Origin: Candidatus Aenigmatarchaeota archaeon
GTDB lineage: Archaea; Thermoplasmatota; Thermoplasmata; Halarchaeoplasmatales; Halarchaeoplasmataceae
Direction: 5' to 3'
Length of the DNA: 64,000 nucleotides
Assembly (NCBI GenBank): GCA_046537845.1
Contig: JBKHKA010000004.1
Location: 24,586 to 88,585, forward strand
Part shown: piece after piece, positions 5,207-58,965 of the stretch
How positions within the stretch are numbered: the first letter of the stretch is position 1
Layout: each line of letters starts with the position of its first letter
Program-made: the position numbers and the translations under genes
Notes under the pieces: model-generated
Seen by the model: only the letters and a program-made list of their open reading frames with translations
Database searches by the model: none
Told to the model about the DNA's origin: nothing

Positions 5207-5836
5207 ATGATAGATGTAGCGGTGATGGCCTCTGGAGGAGGAACCGATTTTCAATCAATAATAGATGCCGGTGAAGCCGGAAAGATAGACGCTAGAGTGG
5301 TTCTGTTGGTGACGAATGAGCCGGACGCTTATTGTATAGAAAGGGCAAAAAAGCACGACATAGACCATACGGTGATCGATCATCGCGGTAAAGAGAGGGA
5401 GGAGCATGAAAGGGAGATTATAGACATCTTGGAGAAGTATGATCCCGATCTCATAGTGATGGCGGGATACATGAGGATATTGACCGATGAATTCGTTGAT
5501 AGGTATCATGGAAGATTGATCAATATCCACCCCGCGCTGCTCCCCCTGTTTGGGGGAAAAGGGATGTACGGAGAAAAAGTCCACAGGGCTGTATTGGACG
5601 CGGGTATGAAACGATCTGGTTGCTCTGTGCACTTCGTAACCAACGAAGTGGACGGAGGGCCTATAATAGATCAGAGGTGTGTACCCGTAAAGAAGGACGA
5701 CGATCCTCACAGCTTGTCGGAAAGGGTGAAAGAAAAAGAGCACGAACTTTTACCTTCAGTGGTCGGTGCTTTTGCCGAGGACAGAGTGAAATTGGAAAAC
5801 GAAAAAGCCTGTGTCCTGCCCAAAAAAGATAATTAG
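5207..5836 (+). CDS. purN: Phosphoribosylglycinamide formyltransferase
   Basis: MIDVAVMASGGGTDFQ...HPALLP..G and the 10-formyl-THF-binding region are present. Length is 209 aa. Confidence 0.85.
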   Translation: MIDVAVMASGGGTDFQSIIDAGEAGKIDARVVLLVTNEPDAYCIERAKKHDIDHTVIDHRGKEREEHEREIIDILEKYDPDLIVMAGYMRILTDEFVDRYHGRLINIHPALLPLFGGKGMYGEKVHRAVLDAGMKRSGCSVHFVTNEVDGGPIIDQRCVPVKKDDDPHSLSERVKEKEHELLPSVVGAFAEDRVKLENEKACVLPKKDN

Positions 5837-5894: not shown

Positions 5895-6749
5895 ATGCCC
5901 ACCTTAAATGGATCGAGTATAGAAGAGTTAGAGGAGATCGCACGAAGAGTAAGGGTTCACATAGTCAAAAGCACCCATGAAGCTGGATCGGGCCATCCAG
6001 GAGGATCGCTATCAGCTACGGACATCCTGACCGCTCTGTATTTCGAGATAATGGAGCATAGACCGGATGAACCGGACTGGCCGAAAAGAGATAGGCTGGT
6101 GTTGAGCAAAGGTCATGCGGCCCCGGCTCTCTACGGCGTGTTAGCGGAATCGGGTTATTTTCCTGTAGAGGAATTGATGACCCTAAGGAATTTAGGTTCA
6201 CGGTTACAGGGACATCCACATGTGAAAGCTACACCGGGTGTGGATGCTTCCACAGGTTCGTTAGGACAGGGCATTTCCATAGCGGCGGGCATGGCCTTGG
6301 CAGCAAAACTAGACAGGGAATCGTATAGAGTGTTCGCTATCTGTGGAGACGGGGAGATGCAGTCAGGCCAGATATGGGAAGCTGCGATGTTCGCCAGCCA
6401 TCAGAAGTTGGATAACCTGATAGTGTTTTTGGATAGGAACAATCTTCAGATCGACGGCTCGACCGAAGAAGTGATGTCCATAGAACCCATAGTTTCTAAA
6501 TGGAACGCCTTCGGTTGGCACGTCCTGGAGATAGAAGGCCACGAGATGGACCAGGTCGTAGATGCGGTTGAAAGAGCCGAAGAGATCCATGGTCAGCCTT
6601 CTATCATCATAGCCCACACCATAAAAGGTAAAGGTGTGCCTTTCATGGAGGGTTCTCTAGCTTTCCACGGTAAAGCCGCCAACGAAAAACAGTTGGAAGT
6701 GGCGCTAAAGGCCCTAGGAGAAAAAGACAACGACGAAGGAGGTGAGTGA
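5895..6749 (+). CDS. tktA-N: Transketolase, N-terminal (TPP-binding) subunit of a split transketolase
   Basis: HIVKSTHEAGSGHPGGSLS and GDGEMQSGQIWEAAMFASH are TPP-binding motifs. The ATG at 5895 is preceded by GAGGAG. The ORF-track frame begins at 5811. Confidence 0.85.
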   Translation: MPTLNGSSIEELEEIARRVRVHIVKSTHEAGSGHPGGSLSATDILTALYFEIMEHRPDEPDWPKRDRLVLSKGHAAPALYGVLAESGYFPVEELMTLRNLGSRLQGHPHVKATPGVDASTGSLGQGISIAAGMALAAKLDRESYRVFAICGDGEMQSGQIWEAAMFASHQKLDNLIVFLDRNNLQIDGSTEEVMSIEPIVSKWNAFGWHVLEIEGHEMDQVVDAVERAEEIHGQPSIIIAHTIKGKGVPFMEGSLAFHGKAANEKQLEVALKALGEKDNDEGGE

Positions 6750-9396: not shown

Positions 9397-10224
9397 TTAT
9401 TCAGGCCTCTCATCGGATTTGTATTTATCCAGCACTTTCTTCACCACTGAGGCGGAGTACCTGTCACCCTCCTCTTCGTAATGACTTTTCAAACTATTTC
9501 CAAAGGAAATAATCTTATCTTCATTGAATTCGAACTTTTTCCCTATCTCTTTCCTGGGTATACCACTCTTTTCCAGCATATTTATCAGCTGTGGTTGAGA
9601 AAGGTTTCCCAGATCAGATCCACAAAGGAATAAGGCATCGAGAAGGTCACCAGTAGTCTCTATAGATCTCCTCTTGATTATATCTCCAGCATCCTCGATA
9701 TCCAGCGATAGATTCAGAGCTACTTCTCTGGCGAGTTTACTGAAGACATACTCCACGTTTCGACCGGTTTTTGCTGAAGTGAAGATAAGTTTTTCAAAAT
9801 TATTGGATAGCCTTGAGGGAGAGACCTCATCGAGAGGTGCCTCTTCTATGAGGTCAAATTTATTCACCACTGGGATTATGGGGTTGTCCCCACCTGCGAT
9901 CTTTTTGTATTTAGGTACCCATTCTTCTTTCAAGCTTTTCATCGTATCTAATCTGGTCAAATCCGATATGGCGATAGCTCCCGTAGAACCCGTAAACGCA
10001 CCTGTTTTCACAGCCTCATAATCCTTTTTCCCCATGATATCGTAGATTATCAATTTGACCTTCCCCTCGCTGAACTCGACTTCCTTCGAGTACACGTTGC
10101 TCCCGATAGTTTTCAGGTATTCTTCTCCGAATATATTCTTCACGAATTTCAGGATTAACGACGTCTTCCCTACAGCTGGGTCTCCCAATAGATTTACTTT
10201 TTTCTTCAGTAGTTTGTCTCCCAT
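9397..10224 (-). CDS. Ras-superfamily small GTPase (Rab/Roc-like) with a roughly 100-aa C-terminal extension
   Basis: It has the P-loop LGDPAVGKTSL, a G4 NKFDL motif and a SAK G5-like motif. The total is 275 aa. Confidence 0.7.
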   Translation of the reverse strand: MGDKLLKKKVNLLGDPAVGKTSLILKFVKNIFGEEYLKTIGSNVYSKEVEFSEGKVKLIIYDIMGKKDYEAVKTGAFTGSTGAIAISDLTRLDTMKSLKEEWVPKYKKIAGGDNPIIPVVNKFDLIEEAPLDEVSPSRLSNNFEKLIFTSAKTGRNVEYVFSKLAREVALNLSLDIEDAGDIIKRRSIETTGDLLDALFLCGSDLGNLSQPQLINMLEKSGIPRKEIGKKFEFNEDKIISFGNSLKSHYEEEGDRYSASVVKKVLDKYKSDERPE

Positions 10225-46375: not shown

Positions 46376-47348
46376 AGACAAGAAAACCATAGGATTTTAC
46401 TGGTGCGCATCTTGTGGCGGGTGCGAGATCAGTGTGTTAGATATAGACGAGATGATCTTGGACGTGGTCGAGAAGGCCGACATCAAATTTTGGCCGTGTG
46501 CCATGGATCCAAAATATGATGACGTAAGAGCCATGAACGACGATGAGTTCGATTTCATATTCATAAACGGCTCCATACGCTCCGAGGAGAACGAGGAGAT
46601 GGTAAAACTGCTGCGGAAGAAAGCCAAAAACGTGGTGGCTTACGGCTCCTGTTCCAGTATTGGCGGATTGTTCGGTTTGGGTAATCTTCACAGCAGTCAG
46701 GAACTGCTTGATAAAGGCTACAATACTAGATCTACTGACGAAGGTCCGATGCCTAAAAAAGTAAGTAAAGTTGAAGAAGGGGAATTGGAACTTCCAGAAT
46801 TGACACTTCATGTGACTCCACTAGAGGACGTCATAGAGGTCGATTATTATATCCCCGGATGTCCTCCCCTGCCGGTCCAACTTGAGGAGGCGTTCCCGGC
46901 GCTTTTGGACGACGATACCGAAGTGGGGAAATACGATTTCATCTCGGAAAAGAGCGTATGCGACGAGTGCCCCATGGAGAGAGAAGAGAAGAATATAGAG
47001 AGGTTGATCCCGATACAGGAGAAAATGGACATCGACCCGGTGGAATGTTTGCTGGACCAGGGTGTCCTATGCATGGGTCCCGCTTCGGCAGGTATGTGTG
47101 AAGCTGCCTGCCCCTCGGTTGGTCATCCCTGCATCGGCTGTAACGGACCTACAAGAGAAGTTGCGGACCAGGGAGGAAGGATGGCTTCGGCCTTGGCGTC
47201 CGTGATCGCTATCGAGGGAGAAGAGAGAAAGACGGAAGAGGATATCAGAGATGCGATGGAGAGTGTGAGAGATCCGACTGGATCGTTCTATAGATTCAGT
47301 CTTCCGACCAGCATCTTGAGATATAAAAGAGGGGATACCGATGAGTGA
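46368..47348 (+). CDS. mvhG: F420-non-reducing [NiFe] hydrogenase small subunit
   Basis: FYWCASCGGCEISVLD is the proximal Fe-S cluster motif of NiFe hydrogenase small subunits. Confidence 0.85.
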   Translation: MSEDKKTIGFYWCASCGGCEISVLDIDEMILDVVEKADIKFWPCAMDPKYDDVRAMNDDEFDFIFINGSIRSEENEEMVKLLRKKAKNVVAYGSCSSIGGLFGLGNLHSSQELLDKGYNTRSTDEGPMPKKVSKVEEGELELPELTLHVTPLEDVIEVDYYIPGCPPLPVQLEEAFPALLDDDTEVGKYDFISEKSVCDECPMEREEKNIERLIPIQEKMDIDPVECLLDQGVLCMGPASAGMCEAACPSVGHPCIGCNGPTREVADQGGRMASALASVIAIEGEERKTEEDIRDAMESVRDPTGSFYRFSLPTSILRYKRGDTDE

Positions 47349-48801
47349 AAAGAAGAAGATATCCATAGATCCTATAACGAGGTTAGAAGGCCACGGTAAG
47401 ATAGAGATATTTTTGGATGATGAGAAAGAAGTGGAGAACGCCTATCTTCAGGTACCGGAGTTCAAGGGCTTTGAAAAGTTCTGTCAGGGAAGAAGGGCAG
47501 AGGACATGCCCACCATAACTAGCAGGATATGTGGTGTATGTCCGGTAGCCCATCATCTTGCTTCGACAAAAGCTTTAGATGCTGCCTATAACGTAGAACC
47601 GCCCGAGCCGGCGGAGAAACTGAGAGAACTCTTCTATAACGGCTATATCTATGCGGATCATCTTTTACACTTCTACTATCTAGCCAGTCCCGATTTCCTG
47701 GTCGGCACGGACGCCCCGAAAGAAGCGAGGAACATATTGGGGGTTATAGAGGAAGTTGGAGTCGATATAGGAAAGAAGGTCATCAAACAGAGGGGCAAGG
47801 GTCAGGAGATCATCCGCATGCTGGGGGGAAAGGCGGTACATCCGAGCTTCGGTGTCCCCGGTGGCGTGGTGAAATCACTAGATAACGAAGAGAGAGAGGA
47901 ACTGATAGAGTTGTCCGACGATATGGTCGATTTTGCAGAGTTCACTCTTGACCTGTTCAAAGATGAAGTGCTGAGTGAGTTTGAAGAGCCGATAAAAGAA
48001 GATCGTTTGGAGACCTATAGCATGGGTCTGACCGAGGACGGAGAACTCAGCCATACCGGAGGTATCGTGAATGTGGTGACCCCGGATGGTGAAGATCTTA
48101 CCGATTTCTCTGGCGAAGATTATCTTGACGTTATCAGAGAACATAAGGAATCCTGGAGTTATATGAAATTCCCGTATCTGAAAGAGGTGGGATGGGAAGG
48201 ATTCGTGGATGGTGAAGATTCAGGTGTGTACCGTGTCGGCCCGTTGGGCAGAGTGAACGCATCCGAGGGCATGAAAACTGAGAAGGCCCAGGAAGGATAT
48301 GAAGAACTCTTCGAAATGTTGGGATATCCGGTCCACTCGACATTGGCTTACCACTGGGCCAGGTTGATAGAGGTCCTTCAAGCCGCTGAGTTGGTTCAGA
48401 AATTGGCACACGACGAGGACCTGGAAAGCGATAACATCCGGAACGAGCCCGGGGAACCGGGAAAGGGTGTAGGTATCGTGGAAGCGGCGAGAGGGACGCT
48501 GATCCACGATTACGAATTGGACGAAGATGGATTGGTTAAAGATCTCAATCTTATTGTAGCTACCACCCACAATGCGGCACCTATATCGATGAGTATCAGA
48601 GATGCTGCCAAAAAGTATATCGACGCAGGAGATGTTCAAGAAGGGATGCTCAACAGCGTCGAGAGAGCTTTCAGGGCTTACGATCCGTGCCTGGCCTGTG
48701 CTACACACTCCGCGATGGGAGAGACGCCCTTGAAGGTCAATATCTATGACAAGGACGGAAAAAATTTGAAGGAGGTCACCCAGGGGATAGGTGAAAGCTA
48801 G
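47341..48801 (+). CDS. mvhA: F420-non-reducing [NiFe] hydrogenase large subunit
   Basis: The N-terminal RICGVCPVAHHLAS and the C-terminal DPCLACATH are NiFe-ligating CxxC pairs. A roughly 30-aa C-terminal tail after His suggests maturation-protease processing. Confidence 0.9.
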   Translation: MSEKKKISIDPITRLEGHGKIEIFLDDEKEVENAYLQVPEFKGFEKFCQGRRAEDMPTITSRICGVCPVAHHLASTKALDAAYNVEPPEPAEKLRELFYNGYIYADHLLHFYYLASPDFLVGTDAPKEARNILGVIEEVGVDIGKKVIKQRGKGQEIIRMLGGKAVHPSFGVPGGVVKSLDNEEREELIELSDDMVDFAEFTLDLFKDEVLSEFEEPIKEDRLETYSMGLTEDGELSHTGGIVNVVTPDGEDLTDFSGEDYLDVIREHKESWSYMKFPYLKEVGWEGFVDGEDSGVYRVGPLGRVNASEGMKTEKAQEGYEELFEMLGYPVHSTLAYHWARLIEVLQAAELVQKLAHDEDLESDNIRNEPGEPGKGVGIVEAARGTLIHDYELDEDGLVKDLNLIVATTHNAAPISMSIRDAAKKYIDAGDVQEGMLNSVERAFRAYDPCLACATHSAMGETPLKVNIYDKDGKNLKEVTQGIGES

Positions 48802-48995
48802 AATAGGTAGTATATATTTAAATCATGAACAAGTGATGGGGACATTTCGAAAGATGGTCTGTGCACCCCTATTCAAGTAGATTCTATCAAATCGAAGAGT
48901 TTAAATCTATCTTTCATAATTTGAAAGCGGTTTTACATAAAAAAACAAATTGGATTAGTTGGGTAAAACTTGGAAGAACAAAAAAGGTGAAAAAA

Positions 48996-50891
48996 ATGGA
49001 TGAATATGAGAAAGTATATGAAGAATCATTAGAGAACCCTAGATCATTTTGGGCAGACGCGGCTGAAGATATAGAATGGGATGAAAAATGGGATCACGTT
49101 TTAGATGAGTCTAACAAACCGTTCTATAGGTGGTTTTCAGGAGGAAAGCTCAATACCTGTTATAATGCAGTCGATTATCATATCAAAGATGGCAGAGGTG
49201 ATCAAGATGCTATCATATATGATAGCCCAGTAACAGATACGATAGAGAAATATTCCTTCGAAGAGTTGAAAGAGCGGGTTTCAAAGATCGCGGGATTCCT
49301 GAGAGAACTCGGGGTCGAGAAGGGCGATACGGTAGTTATCTACATGCCCATGATACCCGAGTCTCTAATGGCCATGTTAGCGTGCGCACGGATAGGCGCC
49401 GTTCATTCCGTCGTGTTCGGCGGTTTTGCATCCAATGAACTGGCGATCAGAGTGGATGATGCCGAACCCGACGTTATACTTTCTGCATCATGCGGGATCG
49501 AACGGGACGAGGTCATAGAGTACAAACCTCTTCTTGACGAGGCGATAGAACTGGCGGAGAACAAGCCCACGAAGTGCGTTATCAAGCAGAGACCCGAGTA
49601 CGAAGGCGAACTTATCGAGGGGAGAGACTATGATTGGGACGAGCTGGAAGAAGAGGCCGAACCCGCAGACTGCGTCTCTGTAGGTGCTAATGATCCTCTT
49701 TATGTGTTGTATACTTCTGGAACCACGGGTAAGCCCAAGGGAGTCGTCAGAGATAATGGCGGACACGCCGTGGCATTGAAATGGTCTATGAGAAATGTTT
49801 ATGGGGTAGAACCCGGAGACGTTTACTGGGCCGCTTCAGATGTCGGCTGGGTCGTGGGTCATTCTTATATCGTCTATGCACCGCTCTTGATCGGCGCTAC
49901 CACGGTCATGTACGAAGGTAAACCTGTTGGAACTCCTGATCCAGGTGCGTTTTGGCGGGTCATCTCTCAGCATGACGTCGACGTGTTGTTCACAGCTCCT
50001 ACAGCCATCAGGGCTATAAAAAGAGAGGATCCAGAGGCGGAGTACTTTGAAGATTACGATGTTTCCGGTTTGGATTCGCTCTTCCTAGCGGGTGAAAGGA
50101 CCGATCCCGATACCTATCATTGGGTTTCCGATCTGCTGCAAGTCCCGGTTATCGACCACTGGTGGCAGACGGAGACAGGGTGGCCAATCGTAGGGAACTT
50201 CAGAGGATTAGAGCAGTTCCCGATCAAACCGGGTTCGGCGACCAAACCTATGCCCGGATATGACCTTCAAATATTGGATCCCCAGACTGGAGAGGAGTTA
50301 CCTCCTGGCGAGACCGGAGTGATCGCGATCAAGCTTCCTTTACCACTAGGGAACTTCATCACTTTGTGGAATAACGATGAGAAGTTCAAGCAGGAATATA
50401 TGGATCCCTTCCCGGGCTATTATTTCACCGGCGACGCAGGCTTCGTCGACGAGGATGGCTATGTGTCCATCATGGGGCGGGTAGATAACGTCATCAATGT
50501 AGCTGGACATAGACTCTCTACCGGCAGTATGGAAGAAGCAGTCGCGAAGCATGATGCGGTAGCGGAGTGTGCAGTGGTAGGTATCAATGACGAGTTGAAG
50601 GGTGAAGTGCCCCTTGGCTTCCTGGTATTGAAGTCGGGTGTCGATCAAGATCATGAGGAAATAAAATCGGAAGTTATACAGATGGTCAGGGATGAAGTGG
50701 GTCCAATTGCGTCTTTCAAGAAGGTGCTGATCGTCGACGAGCTGCCAAAGACACGATCTGGTAAGACGCTGAGAGGGACCATGAAGAAGATAGCCGACGG
50801 TGAAGATTACTCCGTACCTTCAACTATCGCGGACGAGGGAGCTTTAGATACTATAGAAGAGGCGATAGAGGAAGAAGGGGTAGAAAAGTAA
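48996..50891 (+). CDS. prpE: Propionate--CoA ligase / acetyl-CoA synthetase family (PrpE-like)
   Basis: YTSGTTGKPKGVVRDNGGHAVAL resembles the PrpE variant of the ACS motif. The ATG at 48996 follows AAAAAGGTGA. The ORF-track frame starts upstream at 48861. Confidence 0.8.
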   Translation: MDEYEKVYEESLENPRSFWADAAEDIEWDEKWDHVLDESNKPFYRWFSGGKLNTCYNAVDYHIKDGRGDQDAIIYDSPVTDTIEKYSFEELKERVSKIAGFLRELGVEKGDTVVIYMPMIPESLMAMLACARIGAVHSVVFGGFASNELAIRVDDAEPDVILSASCGIERDEVIEYKPLLDEAIELAENKPTKCVIKQRPEYEGELIEGRDYDWDELEEEAEPADCVSVGANDPLYVLYTSGTTGKPKGVVRDNGGHAVALKWSMRNVYGVEPGDVYWAASDVGWVVGHSYIVYAPLLIGATTVMYEGKPVGTPDPGAFWRVISQHDVDVLFTAPTAIRAIKREDPEAEYFEDYDVSGLDSLFLAGERTDPDTYHWVSDLLQVPVIDHWWQTETGWPIVGNFRGLEQFPIKPGSATKPMPGYDLQILDPQTGEELPPGETGVIAIKLPLPLGNFITLWNNDEKFKQEYMDPFPGYYFTGDAGFVDEDGYVSIMGRVDNVINVAGHRLSTGSMEEAVAKHDAVAECAVVGINDELKGEVPLGFLVLKSGVDQDHEEIKSEVIQMVRDEVGPIASFKKVLIVDELPKTRSGKTLRGTMKKIADGEDYSVPSTIADEGALDTIEEAIEEEGVEK

Positions 50892-50892
50892 T

Positions 50893-50920
50893 CTTCGAGC
50901 GCCCCTTCGAGCGCTTTTCA
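50893..50920 (+). terminator. Hairpin (AGCGC-cccttcga-GCGCT) followed by a TTTT run, directly after the prpE stop
   Basis: TTCGAGCGCCCCTTCGAGCGCTTTTC. Archaeal termination commonly occurs at T-runs. Confidence 0.3.
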
Positions 50921-51098
50921 ATTGGATCACACATATCATCATTACATACTCGGTAGACCGAGATAAAAGTGTGATGTCTTCCGTAAAGTCTTCACTTCCT
51001 GTAGTGTCAAGTTCGTCACTTGGAAGACCTGATCTGTCCAGGTATGGAGATCCATTGCGAACAGCAAAATAAAAATAAGAGAAATATATTGGCCCTTT

Positions 51099-51713
51099 AT
51101 GGATGAAAAAGATCAGCTCGAGCCTCGTACGATAATCAAGAAACCGCCGCCCAAGATAGCTGATCCCGCTTGTTTGGGTTTGATCGGTCTTGCCATAGCT
51201 GCTTTGGTACTAGCTTTTACAGACCTAGGTTTTGCCTCGAGCAAAATGGAATCCCTGATTATCCCTTGGACTCTGTTTCTAGGAGCTACGGCCCAGTTGG
51301 TAGCTGGAATAATGGATTTTAAGAGAGATAACATATTTGGAGCTACTGCATTCACAACATATTCTATGCTCTGGTATTCTGTTTCACTCACGTTGTTCAT
51401 AACTATATTCACGTCCATCGATTTTGATCTCACGCATTATGCGCACGGGCTGCTAGGATTTTTGATCTTCAGTATCATATTGACAGGCGCCTCGTTGATG
51501 ACGAATAAAACTCTCCTGGCAGTCCTTATATCTATCGACGTCGCCATTCTGGCTCTCGTCTCTCATATCTTGGTCGGTACAGGAGCGGTTCCTGTGGGTG
51601 TTTCGCTTCTTTTTGTCTCGATATTCTCTTTCTACGGAGCCGCCGGAGTGCTGCTCAACAATATGGCGGAAAAGGAGATATTGCCTTTAGGGGAACCTCT
51701 CTGGGAGCCATAG
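51099..51713 (+). CDS. satP: GPR1/FUN34/YaaH (SatP) family acetate/succinate channel
   Basis: ADPACLGLIGLAIAAL resembles the NPAPLGLxGF signature. It has six TM helices. Length is 204 aa. Confidence 0.7.
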   Translation: MDEKDQLEPRTIIKKPPPKIADPACLGLIGLAIAALVLAFTDLGFASSKMESLIIPWTLFLGATAQLVAGIMDFKRDNIFGATAFTTYSMLWYSVSLTLFITIFTSIDFDLTHYAHGLLGFLIFSIILTGASLMTNKTLLAVLISIDVAILALVSHILVGTGAVPVGVSLLFVSIFSFYGAAGVLLNNMAEKEILPLGEPLWEP

Positions 51714-51751
51714 ACCGTTAAGGGTTGGAAAAGGGGTCAAAAGTTTCGGAT

Positions 51752-52915
51752 TCATATGACCCCACGATCCTCCAATCTTTCTATTTCCTCCTCGGTGTAA
51801 CCCGCATCATTCAGTATCTCTCGCGTATGTTCACCTTTTTGAGGAGGCGGTGTTCTGAATTCATCAATATCCTTCTTTGATCTAGCGGGAAATCCTATCT
51901 GATCGATCTCCATCCCAGAGAAGTCCAATGAACCGATCAGATCTCTCTCTTCGACATGTTGACTTTCGAAGACTTCTTTCAAATTATTTACAGGAGATAT
52001 CATCACTTCGTTTTCTTTTGATATCTTCTTCCATTCCTCGAAAGTTTTCTTCTTGAATTCTTCCTCGATTATCTTTCTGATCCTTTCCTTCTTCTCGGAA
52101 AACTGCTGGTCTTTAAATTCTTCTCTCCCTATCAATTCACAAAAATTCTTCCAATATTTTTCTTCATAGGCAGCTAGGGCGAAGTATCGCCCGTCCTTTG
52201 TCTCATAGATATCATAAAAGGGATATCTTCCCGTCAATTCTGTCTCTCTCGCTCGCGGGACTTCCTCCTCCAAGAGAGGCTGCCAGGCGATGCCCGTGGA
52301 GAACGAAATCAGACAATCCAAGATGGAGATGTCTATATACTCTCCCCTGGAGTCATTGAGTTCTCTATCAAGGAGTGCGTTGATTATGGAAAAGGCGGAA
52401 AAGAGTCCCGCGGTCATCACCGATATGGGAAAGCCAGGGATCGCAGGTTTACCATCCTTCGACCTGGTGATATCGATAAGGCCTCCTTCGGAAGCATAAT
52501 TTAGATCGTGGCCGCCTTTATCCTTTAGTGGACCGGTCTGGCCATAACTGGATAAAGAGCAGTAGATTATATCCGAGTTGACCTCTCTCACCGAGTCGTA
52601 ATCCACCTTCAGTTTTTCGACGACGCCGGGACGGAACTGTTCAAAGACCACGTCGGCGTCTTCGGCGAGGTTCATGAATATCTCTTTACCTTCTTCTTTT
52701 TTAAGATCGATCTCAATTGCCTTTTTATTCCTGTTCAGCATCAAGAATGGGGCTCCTTCTCCCCCGATGGAAGGTTCCATGTCTCTAGCATAGTCTCCTG
52801 TTTCTGGGTCCTCTATCTTTATAACTTCCGCTCCCAGGTCGGCCAAAAGCATTGTAGCGTAGGGACCAGGGATCAATCTAGTCATGTCCAAGATCTTGAT
52901 TCCCTCTAATCTCAT
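51752..52915 (-). CDS. Family III CoA-transferase (CaiB/BaiF/Frc family)
   Basis: The N-terminus MRLEGIKILDMTRLIPGPYATMLLADLGAEVIKIE is diagnostic of CoA-transferase family III. Confidence 0.85.
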   Translation of the reverse strand: MRLEGIKILDMTRLIPGPYATMLLADLGAEVIKIEDPETGDYARDMEPSIGGEGAPFLMLNRNKKAIEIDLKKEEGKEIFMNLAEDADVVFEQFRPGVVEKLKVDYDSVREVNSDIIYCSLSSYGQTGPLKDKGGHDLNYASEGGLIDITRSKDGKPAIPGFPISVMTAGLFSAFSIINALLDRELNDSRGEYIDISILDCLISFSTGIAWQPLLEEEVPRARETELTGRYPFYDIYETKDGRYFALAAYEEKYWKNFCELIGREEFKDQQFSEKKERIRKIIEEEFKKKTFEEWKKISKENEVMISPVNNLKEVFESQHVEERDLIGSLDFSGMEIDQIGFPARSKKDIDEFRTPPPQKGEHTREILNDAGYTEEEIERLEDRGVI

Positions 52916-52967: not shown

Positions 52968-53114
52968 TATAAGACTGTCCATCGATGGCTATAAAACTAC
53001 GGCTCAATCATAGTCTTTGTATCATAACGCAAGCGGATATATAAAAAAGTTTATAAAGCTTATGGGACATATTATACTTTGAGTACCTTTAGAAGAGGGA
53101 AGAGGAGAGATAAT

Positions 53115-54326
53115 ATGAAGCAAGAAAAAGACCCTATAGAGAAGTACGTATCTGCGTACGAAGAAGCTAACGACGACGAAGAGTGCAAGAAAAAAGTGGC
53201 CAACAGACTGCTAAAAGACGAGTTGATCGAAGTAGCCGGAGAGAACGGATTAGATGTCAGTAAAAATCAGACCAAAGATGAGATAGCAGAGAAGCTGATA
53301 AAACCGGAAGTCTACAATCAGATAGTCAGCGAAAGAGAAATTTCCCAGGAGGTAGGGGAAAAGAAAGAAGGAATTGAAGGCGAACTTACTCCCCCAGAGC
53401 CGCCTGAGGTCAAAACAGAGGTCCTCGAACCCTTATCGGACCTAATATCCGATTCAACCTTGAAAGGATCCGAAAAGGTTAACGAGTTATGGATAGACGG
53501 GATGAAAGGGATCGAAGAGAACTTGGAAGGAGTAACGGAACAGAACCTCGAATACTGGGAGGAACTTGAAGATGAATGGATGGAAAAGGCAACTGAATTC
53601 CAGGAACAGATCGACGAACTAAGAGAGAGATCCGTCCTGCCAGAGGACAAGACGAAAGAACTATCGGTGATATGGAGGAACTTCTTCAATAAGATGATGG
53701 CCAGAGTGAAAAAGGCAAATCAGCGTACAAGGGAAAGGCATGAATCTTTAACTCAGCTCGTAGAAAAACATACGGAAAAAGCAAGAGAGACCTTCGATGA
53801 AGAGAGCGAGAGTATAGATACGGGGAAACTACTTGGTCTTTGGTCGGATTTTTCAAAAGATTTGGGAAGCGAGTTAGAGAAGACATTGGATAACTATAGG
53901 AGAGATTACGAGGCAGTAGAAGAGACATGGAAAAATTTTGCCGATAAGACAGAGGATCTCATCGACGATCTCCAAGAAAGTCAAGAGGAACAGGTAGAAG
54001 AACTCTATGAAATGTGGAATTCAAATTTTGAGTTCGTACAAGATAACGTGGAAAAAGGGTTTGAAGATTATATGGATGCCTATGAAATCACGAGAGAGGA
54101 ATTCGAAAGACATAGCCGGAAGGTGACAGAATCTCTTTTTGAATTGGCGGAGAACGTAGAAGAAAATTATTCCAGGTTGATGGAGAGCTACCAGAAAACC
54201 TTAGACGAAGGGTACAGCGGTATGTTTTCCATGGCAAACCCATTAGTTCCAAAAAAGGATGAAAAAGAGTTGGAACGACTCAAAGAAAGAGTGGAAAAAT
54301 TAGAAAAGAAAATAGAGGAGGATTGA
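53115..54326 (+). CDS. Phasin-like acidic coiled-coil protein A, with an N-terminal SAP/Rho_N-like helix-hairpin motif
   Basis: The ATG at 53115 follows GGGAAGAGGAGAG. The ORF-track frame starts at 53079. The motif LLKDELIEVAGENGLDVSKNQTKDEIAEKLI is present. It has repeated E[ED]LYxxW blocks (VEELYEMWNSNF). Confidence 0.6.
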   Translation: MKQEKDPIEKYVSAYEEANDDEECKKKVANRLLKDELIEVAGENGLDVSKNQTKDEIAEKLIKPEVYNQIVSEREISQEVGEKKEGIEGELTPPEPPEVKTEVLEPLSDLISDSTLKGSEKVNELWIDGMKGIEENLEGVTEQNLEYWEELEDEWMEKATEFQEQIDELRERSVLPEDKTKELSVIWRNFFNKMMARVKKANQRTRERHESLTQLVEKHTEKARETFDEESESIDTGKLLGLWSDFSKDLGSELEKTLDNYRRDYEAVEETWKNFADKTEDLIDDLQESQEEQVEELYEMWNSNFEFVQDNVEKGFEDYMDAYEITREEFERHSRKVTESLFELAENVEENYSRLMESYQKTLDEGYSGMFSMANPLVPKKDEKELERLKERVEKLEKKIEED

Positions 54327-54331
54327 GAATA

Positions 54332-55171
54332 ATGGACGAAAAAAACCGAGGAGATAGAAATCTGTTCAGATCCATGGATTATCTTTCCAGCATGGATTTC
54401 AGTGGATTCACAAGAGAATTCGTAGATCAACAGGAAAGGTACATGACCGACGTAGACCAACTGTTAAACCAGTCTTCAGAATTTGGTAAGGACGTGAGGA
54501 AAGTGGTCGAAGAGACCAATGATCAGTATGAAGAACTGATGGACCTGTGGTCCGATCTTTCCGACATGTCCGAAGAATTGGTCGAGAAGAACGTTAAGGA
54601 AGGATTTCAAGAGGATATCCAAGAGTATAACAGGGAGGTTGGTGAGAAGCTGAAAGAACTGGTCAAATCCAGTTATCAAGATGCTGAAGAACTCTATTCG
54701 GCGTGGACAAAGATGTCCGATAGCATTTTCAAGGGCATCAAAGCTGGAACGGGTCCGGATCCTGAGGAGATAACCGAGGCGACGGCAGATTTCCAGGAAG
54801 CTGCTCTTCATATAGCAAAAAGAAACATAGAGGAAAACAACGAATCATTGAGAGAGCTGAGAGAGACACTCGAAGAGATCGCAGAAGAGAGTTCGAACCG
54901 GTTGAAAGAGAACGCTGAATCTAGCGGAGAAGGGTACGAAAAGATGGTGAAGGGCTGGCTTAATACCATCGACGAGATGGAAAGCAAGACTGATAGTTAT
55001 TTAGAGGACCTGAGGGAGAGCTACCTTTCAGCATTCAAACCGTATTTTGGAAGGGGATGGATCTTTCCCTTGTTCCCTTGGCAGCCATCTAGGAAGATGA
55101 GTGAATACGAAAGCGATATAGAGGACCTGAAGAAAAAGATCGAAGAGCTAAAAACTAAGGTGGAGGAATAA
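54332..55171 (+). CDS. Phasin-like acidic coiled-coil protein B (paralog of A)
   Basis: YEELMDLWSDL and AEELYSAWTKM are repeat blocks. The ATG at 54332 follows GAGGAGG. The C-terminus is coiled-coil (EDLKKKIEELKTKVEE). Confidence 0.6.
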   Translation: MDEKNRGDRNLFRSMDYLSSMDFSGFTREFVDQQERYMTDVDQLLNQSSEFGKDVRKVVEETNDQYEELMDLWSDLSDMSEELVEKNVKEGFQEDIQEYNREVGEKLKELVKSSYQDAEELYSAWTKMSDSIFKGIKAGTGPDPEEITEATADFQEAALHIAKRNIEENNESLRELRETLEEIAEESSNRLKENAESSGEGYEKMVKGWLNTIDEMESKTDSYLEDLRESYLSAFKPYFGRGWIFPLFPWQPSRKMSEYESDIEDLKKKIEELKTKVEE

Positions 55172-55204
55172 AACCTCCATCTTTATTTTTTGAGGTAGAT
55201 AACC

Positions 55205-56050
55205 ATGGATAGAGATATTGATATGGAAGATTATTATAAAGAGTTGAGAGAAGATATGCTGACGGTCTGGGAAGATTTTTCTTCTGAGATGGAAGATTTT
55301 CTGGGAGAATTACAGGAGGAAAACGTTGAAGCTTACGAGGAGATGTACGAGGAATGGAAGGACTTCAGCGAACAGATGATGAATCAGAAGAAAAATTTTG
55401 GAGACATCGAGAACTACGTTTCTCTCGCAGATCTTTTTCAACGGTGGGTAAGAGCTTCAAAGGACTTCAGAAATGTAGTCCAGGAAAAGAGCGGAGAAGA
55501 TATCCCCGTCGCTGATTTCGATAATATCTTCTCGGAGTATATGGAAAACCTGAGACTTCTGTTAGGTGAGACCATCGAACTCGGGATGGAACGACAGAGA
55601 AAGGAACAGGAAGATCTTTATGACCTGTGGATGGACGCTTGGTCTAGTCTGGGTGAAGAAGAAGGAGAAAGCATCCCGGACGTGGTCAAGGACGTTCAAA
55701 GTGAATGGATAAAGTCCTCAACCGACCTTTTAAAGATGTGGTCGGAAAGTTTAGAGGAAGGTCAAGCCGAGGACCTTTTCCAGAAAACACAGAAAGAGAT
55801 GCTCAAAAACGCCTCGAACAGCATGGAAGAACTCTTGAGCTCCGAGCCTTATGCTATGTTCCAGGGCAGCTATCTAGATAACTTGCTTGATACGAAGATC
55901 ACGCAGAAGGAACTGCTGAACACCTATCTCGAATCCTTTGGGGTCCCCACTCGGGACGATATACTGAAAGTATACGAATCTATCCACGAGCTGACCTCTA
56001 GAATCAGAGATCTGGAGAGAAGAGTAGACGAGCTCTCAGTAGAGAAGTGA
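55205..56050 (+). CDS. phaE: PhaE-like subunit of class III PHA synthase (paralogous to the phasin-like proteins)
   Basis: It lies directly upstream of phaC. It has EEMYEEWKDF and EDLYDLWMDAW blocks. The C-terminal FGVPTRDDILKVYESIHELTSRIRDLERRVDEL resembles the conserved PhaE C-terminal box. Confidence 0.5.
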   Translation: MDRDIDMEDYYKELREDMLTVWEDFSSEMEDFLGELQEENVEAYEEMYEEWKDFSEQMMNQKKNFGDIENYVSLADLFQRWVRASKDFRNVVQEKSGEDIPVADFDNIFSEYMENLRLLLGETIELGMERQRKEQEDLYDLWMDAWSSLGEEEGESIPDVVKDVQSEWIKSSTDLLKMWSESLEEGQAEDLFQKTQKEMLKNASNSMEELLSSEPYAMFQGSYLDNLLDTKITQKELLNTYLESFGVPTRDDILKVYESIHELTSRIRDLERRVDELSVEK

Positions 56051-56068
56051 ACAGGTGGGGGATATTAT

Positions 56069-57337
56069 ATGAACGAAAATCCTGATCTCACTGATCTACC
56101 GTCCCAAAAATGGATGGAAGGACAGATACAATACATGAAAGACCTTACAAAGAACGTAAAGAAGTTGAATGATGCTCTTGAACTCCTAGCTTCTCAACCC
56201 GAGGTGGAAGTCGGTCAAACTCCAGCTGAAGTGATCTGGGAAGGTGATCTCGCAGAACTTTTACATTTTAAGCAGGAGAACGTGGAGCAAAAACCGCCGG
56301 TACTTTTGGTCTACGCTTTGATTAACGAGGAGTACATATTGGACCTTCAACCGGGCAGGTCGGTCGTAGAATCGTTGTTGAACGAAGGATTAGACGTGTA
56401 CATGATCAATTGGTACAAGCCGGATAAACGTCATCGGTTTGAAACTTTGAACGATTACGTGAATTATTTTATGGACGTCTGCGTGGACAAAGTCAGGAAG
56501 AAAAGGAACAGGGATTCGATCAATATCCTGGGATACTGTATGGGAGGCACGATGTCTTCGATGTATGCCGCTTTATACCCGGAGAAAGTCAAGAGCTTGA
56601 CTTTGATGGCCGCTGGATTGGATTTCGAGGAGGATGAAGGATTATTGAGTCATTGGGCGAACTCCGATTATTTCGACCCAGAAAAAGTGGTCGAGGCCTT
56701 TGGTACCTGTCCTGGAGATTTCCTGGACGGGGCATACCTTGCTTTAGCACCGGTCAATAACACCGTGGGAAAACTTTTGAATCTGGCAGATAACGCTGAA
56801 GACGAGGAATTCGTCAAGATGTTCTTCAGGATGGAAAAATGGATACACGACAGTAAGGATATACCGGGACCAGCTTTCTCAAAATTCGTAGGAGATCTCT
56901 ACCAAAAAAACAAGCTCATAAAAAATGAATTCCATATCGGAGGTGAACATGTAGATATTAACAATATCACCATGCCCCTGCTAACTATTATCGGAGAGTA
57001 CGATACCTTGGTACCTCCAGAAAGCAGTCTTCCCTTCAAAGATAAGGTTCCGAGTGAGAAGACCGAGGTGATGAAAGCGCCGGTAGGTCACATAGGACTC
57101 TCTGTGAGTTCCAAGGTTCATCCGGATTTATGGGGGAAAGCCGCCGAGTGGATAAAAGAGCACGATAGAATCCCATTGAAGAGCATCAAAGGCATCGGCG
57201 AAAAAACGGCGGAAAAATTGAAAGAAGCTTCGGTTAAAGATGGAACAGACCTGAAGCGAGCGGATACAGAAGAATTGTCTGAAAAGACAGGCATCTCTGA
57301 AAATAGGATCGAAAAATGGAAAAAGAGGGCAGAGTGA
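56069..57337 (+). CDS. phaC: Class III poly(3-hydroxyalkanoate) synthase catalytic subunit PhaC with a C-terminal (HhH)2-like extension
   Basis: The alpha/beta hydrolase has the lipase-box GYCMGG (catalytic Cys). Downstream are Asp (GEYDTLV) and His (VGHIGL). The C-terminus is SIKGIGEKTAEKLKEASVKDGTDLKRADTEELSEKTGISENRIEKW. Confidence 0.85.
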   Translation: MNENPDLTDLPSQKWMEGQIQYMKDLTKNVKKLNDALELLASQPEVEVGQTPAEVIWEGDLAELLHFKQENVEQKPPVLLVYALINEEYILDLQPGRSVVESLLNEGLDVYMINWYKPDKRHRFETLNDYVNYFMDVCVDKVRKKRNRDSINILGYCMGGTMSSMYAALYPEKVKSLTLMAAGLDFEEDEGLLSHWANSDYFDPEKVVEAFGTCPGDFLDGAYLALAPVNNTVGKLLNLADNAEDEEFVKMFFRMEKWIHDSKDIPGPAFSKFVGDLYQKNKLIKNEFHIGGEHVDINNITMPLLTIIGEYDTLVPPESSLPFKDKVPSEKTEVMKAPVGHIGLSVSSKVHPDLWGKAAEWIKEHDRIPLKSIKGIGEKTAEKLKEASVKDGTDLKRADTEELSEKTGISENRIEKWKKRAE

Positions 57338-57341
57338 TAAG

Positions 57342-58112
57342 ATGGTTGGTGACAGCGAACCCTACAGGGACCGATTCAAAGACAGGAATGCCCTAGTGAC
57401 CGGAGCATCAAGAGGAATCGGAAAAAAAATTACGAACACACTAGCAGAGTACGGCGCGGATGTGGTCGTCAATTACAACACGAGCCACGAAGAAGCGAGC
57501 GAAACAGCCACGACCGTAGAGTTGGCTGGCGAAGATAGTTGGGTCTATCCGGCAGATATCAGCTCTTTTAAAGAAGTCGAAGAGATGAAAGAAAACATTG
57601 AAGAGAATTTTGGAAAGATAGATATACTGGTGAATAACGCTGGTATAAACAAAGATAAGTTCTTTGCTAAGATGGAAAAAGACGATTGGGAAAAAGTTTT
57701 GTCTGTGAACCTTGACGGAGTTTTCAACTGCTCCAAGATATTTTTAGATGATCTAAGGAGATCCGAATCGGGAAGGATAGTGAACATTTCTTCGGTTGTA
57801 GGCCAAAGGGGTAACCAAGGACAGGTCAATTACGCCTCATCCAAGGCAGGCATTATAGGATTCACCAAGGCGTTAGCGAGAGAGTTGGTGAGAGATGACG
57901 TAACTGTTAACGCTGTTGCCCCGGGATTCATCGCTACGGAGATGGTATTGAACATGCCAGAAAAAATCCAGGAGAAGATAAAAAGTGATATACCCATGGG
58001 ACGCTTTGGAGACCCGAAAGAGGTGGCCGAGACGGTAGCGTTCCTTGCCTCTTCGGATGCATCTTACATCACAGGGGAAGTTTTAAAAGTCAACGGTGGT
58101 TTCTACATCTGA
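57342..58112 (+). CDS. phaB1: SDR family acetoacetyl-CoA reductase / 3-oxoacyl reductase (PhaB/FabG-like) 1
   Basis: ALVTGASRGIGKKI matches TGxxxGIG. NNAG and the YASSKAG YxxxK catalytic motif are present. Confidence 0.8.
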   Translation: MVGDSEPYRDRFKDRNALVTGASRGIGKKITNTLAEYGADVVVNYNTSHEEASETATTVELAGEDSWVYPADISSFKEVEEMKENIEENFGKIDILVNNAGINKDKFFAKMEKDDWEKVLSVNLDGVFNCSKIFLDDLRRSESGRIVNISSVVGQRGNQGQVNYASSKAGIIGFTKALARELVRDDVTVNAVAPGFIATEMVLNMPEKIQEKIKSDIPMGRFGDPKEVAETVAFLASSDASYITGEVLKVNGGFYI

Positions 58113-58134
58113 ATCTATCGAAAGAGGGATACAT

Positions 58135-58965
58135 ATGAAAAGCGATGAAGACCAACAGTTAAAGCTAAAATCATATTTTGAAAACGACGACATAGAAAAC
58201 CTAGATCCCAGCAGTAACCGTTTGGAGGGATTGAATGCACTCGTAACAGGCGGAGGACAGGGCATCGGCAGAAGGATATCACTAGAGTTCGCAAACGAGG
58301 GGGCTAACGTGGCTATAAACGACTTGAGCTCGCAGAAAGATAAGGCGGATAGGGTAGCCCAATATATAGAAGGAGAATTGAACAAAAATACATGGATAGC
58401 CGAAGGAGACGTTTCGGACTTGGACGATATGAAAAAGGTCAAGGAGCAGGTAGAGGAAAATCTAGGTAAGATTGACATATTGGTGAATAATGCTGGGATC
58501 AATAGAGATTCTTTATTCATAAAGATGGACAAAGAAGAGTGGGATCAGGTCTTATCGGTGAATCTTGATGGGGCTTTCAACACCACTCATGTGTTTCTAG
58601 ATCATCTCCGAGAGTCCGATCAGGGCAGGATAATCAATATGTCCTCTGTTGTAGGAGAAACTGGAAATATCGGTCAGGTGAATTACGCCTCCTCAAAAGC
58701 CGGATTGATAGGGTTCACTAAAGCTCTAGCTAGAGAGTTGGTGAGGGATGAAGTCACCGTCAATGCTGTAGCTCCGGGTTTCGTGGATACCCTGATGGTA
58801 AAAAATATGCCTGAGAAAGTCAAGAAGAAAATCCTCGATCAAATACCGATGGGGCGTTTTGCGGAGCCCAAAGAAGTGGCGAAGGTCTTCTGCTTTTTAG
58901 CATCAGAAAAAAGCTCGTACATCACCGGAGAGGTGATAAGGATGAACGGAGGTTTTTACCTATAA
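58135..58965 (+). CDS. phaB2: SDR family acetoacetyl-CoA reductase (PhaB/FabG-like) 2, a paralog of the preceding gene
   Basis: ALVTGGGQGIGRRI, NNAG and YASSKAG are present. The ATG at 58135 follows AGAGGGA. The ORF-track frame begins at 58096, overlapping the phaB1 stop. Confidence 0.8.
   Translation: MKSDEDQQLKLKSYFENDDIENLDPSSNRLEGLNALVTGGGQGIGRRISLEFANEGANVAINDLSSQKDKADRVAQYIEGELNKNTWIAEGDVSDLDDMKKVKEQVEENLGKIDILVNNAGINRDSLFIKMDKEEWDQVLSVNLDGAFNTTHVFLDHLRESDQGRIINMSSVVGETGNIGQVNYASSKAGLIGFTKALARELVRDEVTVNAVAPGFVDTLMVKNMPEKVKKKILDQIPMGRFAEPKEVAKVFCFLASEKSSYITGEVIRMNGGFYL

Follow-up and report, generated by a model that had tools for sequence, protein, structure and literature searches.

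A polyhydroxyalkanoate gene cluster of halophilic Thermoplasmata with two PhaE-related candidate granule proteins

Three adjacent genes, here called A, B, and C, stand directly ahead of a polyhydroxyalkanoate (PHA) synthase gene in an archaeal genome, and their products share tryptophan-marked sequence blocks. Are the three proteins related, and what might they do in PHA storage? The genes were analyzed within a window of 64,000 nucleotides, in which the locus at positions 53115-58965 is the PHA gene cluster of a halophilic Thermoplasmata archaeon, represented by a metagenome-assembled genome (MAG) of Candidatus Natronoplasma. The cluster runs A, B, phaE, phaC, and then two reductase genes (Table 1). 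Judged by profile comparison, A and B are paralogs of each other and distant relatives of PhaE, and they constitute a PhaE-related family of their own. The explanation that best covers the whole locus is a PHA cluster in which C is PhaE and A and B are granule-coating relatives of PhaE, with A possibly coupling granules to nucleic acid; we would put its probability at about 0.55.

The relation of A and B to PhaE

Protein C was proposed in the first-pass annotation to be PhaE, the synthase partner, and this identification holds. By its profile match, C is PhaE, the non-catalytic subunit of a class III synthase: residues 8-270 align with positions 46-310 of the 311 in the Pfam model PF09712 (PHA_synth_III_E), at 27.3 bits against a cut-off of 25.7, and a class III phaC adjoins the gene. 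The two genes are co-oriented and 18 bp apart, an arrangement kept in six species. All C orthologs carry PF09712, and NCBI names one of them (P0051) PhaE. Comparison with the experimentally studied PhaE of Haloferax mediterranei gives an hhalign probability of 89.6% over 151 columns in the C-terminal half, and two haloarchaeal PhaEs match a hidden Markov model (HMM) of the C family at 37.5 and 48.6 bits. The tail of C, VPTRDD followed by a leucine zipper, matches the ends of PF09712, PF05597, and TIGR02132. The PhaE box has been reported missing from several bona fide haloarchaeal PhaEs (PMC7137286 among the sources).

The synthase encoded next to C scores 382.7 on TIGR01836 (cut-off 365.3), carries a GYCMGG lipase-box-like motif as read in the sequence, and is 42-47% identical to haloarchaeal PhaC. 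Its C-terminus is a helix-hairpin-helix domain (HHH_5; residues 370-421, nucleotides 57176-57331; 37.9 bits against a cut-off of 27), an architecture shared by the PhaCs of H. mediterranei and Haladaptatus. On both criteria of the HHH_5-tailed class III type (“type 4” PhaC of halophilic archaea), the protein falls within that type, which was described earlier (bioRxiv 10.1101/693432). The tail was considered as a novelty and dismissed, being present in haloarchaeal PhaCs and already described. A “longer C-terminal sequence” of haloarchaeal PhaC has been reported as indispensable for activity. As a separate observation, that sequence is the HHH_5 domain, found at 41-42 bits in two haloarchaeal loci (L017 3977-5455; L018 4001-5272); the tail also occurs in the Thermoplasmata PhaC described here and in locus L019. 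Its presence in a Thermoplasmata PhaC means that this synthase type is not confined to Halobacteria, contrary to a 2019 preprint. The PhaE and PhaC assignments are otherwise ordinary, known parts of such a cluster.

How A and B relate to this PhaE was approached by profile-profile comparison (hhalign). The original proposal of three paralogous proteins is clear for A and B, which align with a probability of 96.7% (E 4e-10) and a score of 75, against 37 for the reversed control and a mean of 16 (±3) and a maximum of 22.5 for shuffled controls. For A and C, the score is 44 (reversed 33; shuffled mean 15, maximum 21.5), and for B and C, it is 41 (reversed 20; shuffled mean 15, maximum 26.4). The true scores of all three pairs exceed the reversed and shuffled controls, and the two weaker links, to C, are reinforced by intermediate sequences. 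Run against 1.84 billion representative proteins, the A profile gave only 39 matches, among them about ten further full-length A-like proteins and some twenty proteins of ~300 amino acids (aa) that match A residues ~177-404. It also retrieved P0029 (E 1.3e-6), P0040 (E 5.2e-4), and P0036, which are PhaE-like by the C-family HMM; P0029 and P0040 score 94 bits each on that model. Two relatives, P0012 and P0013, match all three family HMMs (135, 71, and 47 bits). PhaE resembles A and B in its N-terminal tryptophan-repeat region, which matches the relatives several times over, and the link to A and B therefore extends beyond the C-terminal zipper.

A and B share a tryptophan-marked amphipathic helical unit of ~29 residues and a C-terminal P-x-[KR]-leucine-zipper module. 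All seven peptide strings quoted in the first-pass annotation occur in the proteins to which they were ascribed, and the E[ED]LYxxW blocks are real: three are observed against 0.002 expected in composition-preserving shuffles of A, B, and C, and the looser pattern E[ED][LM][YM]xxW is observed five times against 0.009 expected, both patterns having been chosen post hoc. In an alignment of 11 A-family members, the tryptophan columns 126, 155, 187, 243, and 301 are invariant, and those at 148 and 272 are conserved in 91%; the columns are spaced by ~29 or ~56-58 residues. Read from this alignment, the E[ED]LYxxW-type blocks anchor a true repeat with a period of ~29 residues. Helical segments of A of ~56 residues match each other in profile-profile comparison, the clearer pairs scoring 35-49, where reversed controls reach 16-21 and shuffled ones 17 at most.

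From N- to C-terminus, A consists of a five-helix domain, an acidic P/E-rich linker that is disordered in the AlphaFold model, four tryptophan-repeat helices, and a leucine zipper. The model shows four long helices, each opening with an (E-E-L-Y)-x-x-W-x-x-F block. The helices are strongly amphipathic (hydrophobic moment z = 5-8 against shuffles), and the mean hydrophobic moment of A and B is 0.38-0.39 against 0.21 in shuffles (z = 7.6-8.2; A, z = 7.6). The zipper of A follows a P-x-K, B and C have equivalent modules at their ends, and the module is aligned both between A and B and between A and C; residues L389, R392, L396, and E397 are invariant in the 11 A-family members. The description of the proteins as coiled coils fits in part: canonical 3-4-3-4 heptads can be seen only in the last ~20 residues of each. 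B is shorter than A and has no N-terminal domain. Just ahead of its zipper, B carries a hydrophobic, proline-rich patch (residues 237-252, PYFGxxxxxPLFPWxP) that is invariant in the four closest orthologs (window, L001, L002, and L005) and has weaker counterparts in A (GY..F.M) and PhaE (YLESFGVPTR). This patch may be a surface that contacts PHA or PhaC.

The strong acidity ascribed to A, B, and C is real, with isoelectric points (pI) of 4.18-4.45 and 25-27% Asp plus Glu. Across the other 34 large open reading frames (ORFs) of the window, the median pI is 4.71 and 79% of the values lie below 5, so the acidity is lineage-wide and not specific to the three proteins. As a family trait it was rejected: here it marks the whole proteome, and non-halophilic relatives lack it. 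It reflects a halophilic lineage, probably one with a salt-in strategy.

Were A, B, and C unrelated acidic coiled-coil proteins, their shared blocks would be products of an E/W-rich composition. This view can draw on the acidic and helical character of all three, on the many weak matches given by generic coiled-coil and helical-bundle families, and on reversed-sequence controls that by themselves reach hhalign scores of 20-37. Against it stand a motif count far above composition-preserving shuffles, true profile scores above every control, tryptophan positions invariant across 11 divergent sequences, and synteny kept in six species. In addition, the relatives P0013 and P0017 are basic (pI 8.6-8.9), and such non-acidic relatives match all three HMMs, which excludes a compositional artefact. 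The artefact named in the first-pass annotation as a possible refutation is thereby ruled out by shuffles, profile controls, and basic relatives, and the idea of unrelated proteins, which we rate as extremely improbable, is effectively refuted.

The order A-B-PhaE-PhaC(HHH), followed by two short-chain dehydrogenase (SDR) genes, is kept in six species-level Thermoplasmata genomes (the window, L001, L002, L005, L013, and L015), with A identities of 33-48%. In L009 and L019, a single relative of ~300 aa lies directly upstream of phaE-phaC. In L020, a single relative comes after a reductase gene, and the contig ends within the gene that comes next. Elsewhere, two tandem family members of 292 aa occur in a non-halophilic Thermoplasmata MAG (L010 1553-3330) with no PhaC on the 8-kb contig, and distant A-like genes in L007 and L008 are likewise without neighboring pha genes. 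The PHA linkage is therefore not universal across the wider family.

Several of these comparisons speak against the proposed relation and role. The direct similarity of C to A and to B is weak, that of A and C lying not far above its reversed control; 3 of the 7 segment pairs tested within A score no better than their own reversed control; and on TIGR01834, C scores 29.5 bits, well below the cut-off of 154.95. Two distant A-like proteins, P0009 and P0011 (24-26% identity), are encoded on short contigs without pha genes beside them.

Granule coating or synthase partnership

The first-pass annotation saw in the three proteins an expanded family of granule-associated proteins. One extended family tied to phaE-phaC clusters is indeed found, but A and B fail every phasin model (Pfam PF09361, PF05597, PF09602, and PF09650 among them), which tells against a role as granule proteins. 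On Phasin_2, A scores 21.5 and B 23.4 bits (cut-off 24.9), and on PF05597, the score is 10.8 (cut-off 28.8; E 0.52). The PhaM model has no match to A and matches B only at E 0.44. Scores on TIGR01985 are 23.3 and 18.4 for A and B (cut-off 99.7), and neither protein reaches the threshold of any PhaE model, PF09712 included. Homology of A and B to haloarchaeal PhaP was also considered and rejected, with hhalign probabilities of 0.8% for the A family and 5.3% for the B family. The sub-threshold Phasin_2 scores are not decisive, because a proven haloarchaeal PhaP itself scores only 17.9 bits; the regions matched are not consistent across family members.

In physical terms, A and B have the character of phasins, being amphipathic and alpha-helical with C-terminal 3-4-3-4 heptads, and they give recurrent sub-threshold matches to the Phasin_2, apolipoprotein, apolipophorin-III, and perilipin models. 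A leucine zipper is common among phasins (PMC5658603). A and B also hold the gene positions of phaR and phaP in the haloarchaeal phaR-phaP-phaE-phaC cluster. The case for A and B as phasins is built on gene context, amphipathic character, and kinship with PhaE, and not on model membership. In the mechanism that we favor, the two proteins would coat the PHA granule surface with their amphipathic helices, acting as the phasins of this lineage, and would oligomerize through the zipper, possibly together with PhaE.

The DNA between B and phaE bears on the amounts in which these proteins may be made. A hairpin spans the B stop codon and is followed by a T-rich tract and then by the phaE ribosome-binding site. 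A hairpin with a T-run occurs at this place in all six species with differing stem sequences (L001 ~5355-5400, L002 ~10018-10062, L005 ~6278-6322, L013 ~10023-10067, and L015 ~9987-10031), with minimum free energy z-scores of -2.9 to -6.9. These hairpins emerge from folding the sequence of each species singly; RNAalifold on the B-phaE spacer gives a poor consensus, the hairpins being out of register in the MAFFT alignment. The element looks like a conserved terminator or attenuator separating A-B from phaE-phaC, and its conservation suggests that A-B and phaE-phaC-SDR-SDR differ in expression level. It could let A and B be made in excess over the enzyme genes.

This arrangement also bears on the possibility that A and B are not bulk phasins but further PhaE-like subunits or activators of the synthase, binding PhaC directly. 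A precedent is PhaM, which activates PhaC1. PhaE is the only detectable homolog of known function for A and B, the C-terminal P-x-[KR]-zipper module is common to A, B, and PhaE, and A and B are strictly linked to phaE-phaC in six species, all of which would suit a synthase partner. Yet the terminator-like element parts A-B from phaE-phaC, which suggests a different stoichiometry, such as abundant structural proteins would need, and A and B resemble the N-terminal repeats of PhaE rather than its C-terminal core, the part alignable with the minimal haloarchaeal PhaE. Direct partnership with the synthase appears improbable, and granule coating remains the preferred role.

The N-terminal domain of A: Tether, regulator, or docking module

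A differs from B and PhaE by its N-terminal domain, in which the first-pass annotation recognized a SAP/Rho_N-like DNA-binding motif. AlphaFold models residues 1-76 as five helices, with a predicted local distance difference test score (pLDDT) of 84.6. Within it, the motif consists of a helix at residues 34-43, a 10-residue loop, and a helix at residues 54-61, modeled at a pLDDT of ~90. Across the 11 family members, K25, E36, and K54 are invariant, and L33, K34, and T53 are conserved at 90% or more. The modeled segment resembles known HeH-type motifs (SAP PF02037, LEM, HeH, and Rho_N PF07498) in its two short helices and ~10-residue loop, with conserved L-K-x-E at helix 1 and T-K starting helix 2.

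The link to Rho_N is transitive. The A-family profile matches P0031 with E 5.5e-6 over the 1.84 billion proteins, and both C-terminal repeats of P0031 match the A profile at 22-33 bits each. Residues 244-277 of P0031 score 29.0 on Rho_N (cut-off 24.9) and 22.1 on FANC_SAP (cut-off 23). P0031 (320 aa) is itself an actinobacterial-type ribosomal protein L22 with a long Arg/Gly-rich and acidic extension, which ends at residues 225-315 in two tandem Rho_N/SAP-like repeats (HTKDELLxLAExAGxEVAKSxTKxxIAxAI). Apart from this match, SAP_new25 is the commonest weak Pfam hit, reached by 3 of the 11 members at E 0.009-0.06.

No direct match to a Pfam, PDB, or Foldseek entry supports the motif, and the following results count against it. 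With A and with 4 and 11 N-terminal domains, no SAP, Rho_N, LEM, or HeH Pfam match other than SAP_new25 was obtained at E values up to 10. Profile searches of PDB sequences with alignments A4, A6, and A7 returned no Rho or SAP protein, although the PDB holds many structures of both. Foldseek with the N-terminal model found nothing significant (best E 1.4 in PDB and 0.29 in BFVD). The motif also differs from HeH-type motifs in lying inside a larger five-helix domain. In the window protein, the segment has a net charge of 0 (-0.15 elsewhere), but family-wide, its acidity does not differ from that of the remaining sequence; charge was therefore rejected as support for DNA binding, not being distinctive across the family. 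Full-length A searched against PDB with Foldseek gave only generic long-helix bundles, BAR domains, and designed proteins, which is uninformative.

These same results are what would be expected if the domain served protein-protein docking and its resemblance to Rho_N and SAP were a coincidence of short helix-loop-helix structures: the direct matches to SAP, Rho_N, LEM, and HeH models and structures are missing, the segment is as negative as the remaining protein, and the five-helix domain has no significant structural neighbor. Such a coincidence would have to explain the specific match to both P0031 repeats, in which TKDELLxLAExAGxEVAKSxTKxxIAE aligns with LKDELIEVAGENGLDVSKNQTKDEIAE, and the fact that one of these repeats passes the Pfam Rho_N threshold. 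The named weak structural matches are, moreover, enriched for HeH/LEM, SAP, and Rho_N proteins (two of each among the non-significant BFVD matches). A docking domain is accordingly an unlikely reading. The N-terminal motif of A likely has an HeH-type fold, and the domain may bind nucleic acid.

What A would do with such a domain is the most speculative part of the mechanism. Held on the disordered acidic linker, the HeH/Rho_N-type domain could couple granules to nucleic acid and thereby position or segregate them, as PhaF and PhaM do. In Pseudomonas putida and Ralstonia eutropha, phasin-like proteins (PhaF and PhaM, respectively) link PHA granules to the nucleoid. The proposed architecture of A matches theirs in combining an amphipathic helical region, a zipper, and a separate putative nucleic-acid module (PMC5658603), and in each case a paralog without the DNA module is encoded alongside, PhaI by PhaF and B by A. 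PhaF and PhaM, in contrast, bind DNA through basic, histone-H1-like C-terminal AAKP/PAKKA repeats, whereas A has no such tail and its candidate module is N-terminal. A shows no sequence relationship to either protein and would be an analog only, not a member of their family. The role of A as a nucleoid tether, also proposed in the first-pass annotation, is plausible; a PhaR-like regulatory role would fit A equally well.

The upstream region of A is relevant to that second possibility. A transcription factor B recognition element (BRE)/TATA-like element lies ~57 nucleotides (nt) upstream of the A start codon and is conserved, as AAAAAGGTTTATAA, at the same position in all six loci; from this, it can be taken as the putative promoter of A. 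Just 5' of it is a degenerate copy of the palindrome TTGTAT-N4-ATACAA. The palindrome is exact in three species (L001 3210-3225; L002 7900-7915; L005 4137-4152 and 4156-4171) and degenerate in the other loci; in L015, a variant, TTGCAT...ATGCAT, keeps the symmetry. A dimeric regulator, or A itself, could use the palindrome as an operator.

Granule-titrated autoregulators are known in bacteria (PhaR) and in haloarchaea (PhaR of the AbrB type). By analogy, A could be one too: a zipper dimer bound to the palindrome would be titrated off by nascent granules, de-repressing A-B, and A would regulate the operon rather than tether granules. A sits where phaR sits in haloarchaeal phaR-phaP-phaE-phaC (PMC7137286). 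The palindrome is immediately 5' of the BRE/TATA element, exact in three species and degenerate elsewhere, and A unites a dimerizing zipper with putative regions for binding nucleic acid and granules. Against this, HeH/SAP-type motifs are generally not sequence-specific readers of palindromes. The copy in the window has two mismatches and by itself is no better a match than expected by chance, and the palindrome could be bound by some other regulator. The two roles are also compatible, as PhaF performs both (PMC5658603). We consider it unlikely that A is chiefly a regulator of this kind and retain granule coating, possibly with nucleic-acid coupling, as the preferred role.

Gene neighborhood, known systems, and significance

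A, B, and C lie head to tail on the plus strand, and ORF calling recovers all three at the coordinates in Table 1. Longer forms of A and B starting at TTG codons (53079 and 54323) are possible, but ortholog alignments favor the ATG starts at 53115 and 54332 over the upstream TTG. The start of the second SDR gene is uncertain (58096 GTG or 58135 ATG). Both SDR genes are kept downstream of phaC in the related loci. The CoA-transferase gene is divergent from A here and co-oriented upstream of A in related loci; it adjoins A in L001, L002, L003, and L005. An Rfam scan of the window gave 0 matches.

Table 1. Features of the PHA locus and its flank, in positions of the window.
Feature	Position	Strand	Evidence or remark
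Family III CoA-transferase gene	51752..52915	-	PF02515, 350 bits; conserved cluster neighbor
Degenerate copy TTGTATCATAACGCAA of TTGTAT-N4-ATACAA	53017..53032	.	Just 5' of promoter
BRE/TATA-like promoter element AAAAAAGTTTATAAAG	53043..53058	+	~57 nt upstream of A start codon
Gene A, 403 aa	53115..54326	+	ORF; syntenic orthologs 45-48% identity; AlphaFold model; annotated hypothetical protein
HeH/SAP/Rho_N-like motif LLKDELIEVAGENGLDVSKNQTKDEIAEKLI, A residues 25-66	53187..53312	+	Conservation; model; indirect profile match
Four long amphipathic helices, A residues 119-372	53469..54230	+	Trp columns; hhalign; hydrophobic moment; model
C-terminal leucine zipper ELERLKERVEKLEKKIEE, A residues 382-402	54258..54320	+	Heptad spacing read from sequence
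Gene B, 279 aa	54332..55171	+	ORF; orthologs 49-54% identity; annotated hypothetical protein
Hairpin across B stop codon, then T-tract	55157..55193	+	Terminator scan
Gene C (phaE), 281 aa	55205..56050	+	PF09712 match above cut-off
phaC, class III PHA synthase, 422 aa	56069..57337	+	TIGR01836; HHH_5
Short-chain dehydrogenase, FabG/PhaB-like putative acetoacetyl-CoA reductase	57342..58112	+	adh_short_C2, 226 bits
Second short-chain dehydrogenase (PhaB-like)	58135..58965	+	adh_short_C2, 217 bits

Upstream of A, the ORFs at 47341-52915 would supply acyl-CoA precursors or reducing power. They include an ORF that resembles [NiFe]-hydrogenase large subunits (47341-48801; a call based on the N-terminal sequence only), a putative acetyl/propionyl-CoA-synthetase-like ORF (48861-50891), and a GPR1/FUN34/YaaH-family transporter (51099-51713).

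Database entries identical in sequence to B, C, and PhaC come from MAGs labeled Candidatus Natronoplasma sp., a genus placed in Thermoplasmata, order Ca. Halarchaeoplasmatales. The same proteins appear under both “Candidatus Aenigmatarchaeota archaeon” and “Candidatus Natronoplasma sp.” Since all relatives are Thermoplasmata, the Aenigmatarchaeota label of the MAG is probably a mis-assignment. Halarchaeoplasmatales is an uncultured order thought to use a salt-in strategy (PMC11332174).

Among known systems, C is closest to PhaE (PF09712), which has been studied experimentally in H. mediterranei, Haloarcula, Allochromatium, and Synechocystis and which C resembles in Pfam match and in having a class III phaC directly downstream. 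With 281 aa, C is longer than haloarchaeal PhaE (182 aa), and bacterial PhaE is ~40 kDa (PMC7137286). A and B share the repeat unit and the C-terminal zipper with C, but they have no PF09712 match, and A has the additional N-terminal domain and linker.

The haloarchaeal phaR-phaP-phaE-phaC cluster is likewise built with two small non-enzymatic genes before phaE-phaC, the first with a putative DNA-binding module, with a PhaC of the same HHH_5-tailed type and with reductase genes nearby. In H. mediterranei, phaRP is a separate, more highly expressed unit (PMC7137286), and the terminator-like element after B would give a similar arrangement. The accessory proteins themselves differ. Haloarchaeal PhaR is of the AbrB type, whereas a Pfam scan found no AbrB domain in A; A and B exceed PhaR and PhaP in size by a factor of 2-3 (154 aa for PhaP in H. 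mediterranei); and A and B are paralogs of each other and of PhaE, with no detectable homology to PhaP.

These comparisons suggest a broader and more tentative proposal, which we regard as possible but doubtful. PhaE may be a specialized member of a wider archaeal family of granule-binding proteins built from tryptophan-marked repeats of ~29 residues, duplicated in halophilic Thermoplasmata into a phasin (B) and a granule-to-nucleic-acid coupler (A), the latter arising by fusion of an HeH/Rho_N-like domain to the repeat scaffold. A would then be the first archaeal counterpart of PhaF and PhaM, independently evolved and with a different DNA-binding module.

To our knowledge, archaeal PHA granule biology is known almost only from haloarchaea, where the accessory proteins are PhaP and the AbrB-type PhaR. 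The locus described here indicates that a second halophilic archaeal lineage, the uncultured Halarchaeoplasmatales, has the HHH-tailed synthase type with entirely different accessory proteins, which are unannotated and share their origin with PhaE. Should A and B prove to be granule proteins, they would define a fifth phasin-like family and provide an evolutionary origin for the non-catalytic scaffold of PhaE. They would also offer a candidate for granule-nucleoid coupling or granule-sensing regulation in archaea, and, as halophilic and strongly amphipathic phasin-like proteins, they would be of practical interest as surfactants or affinity tags.

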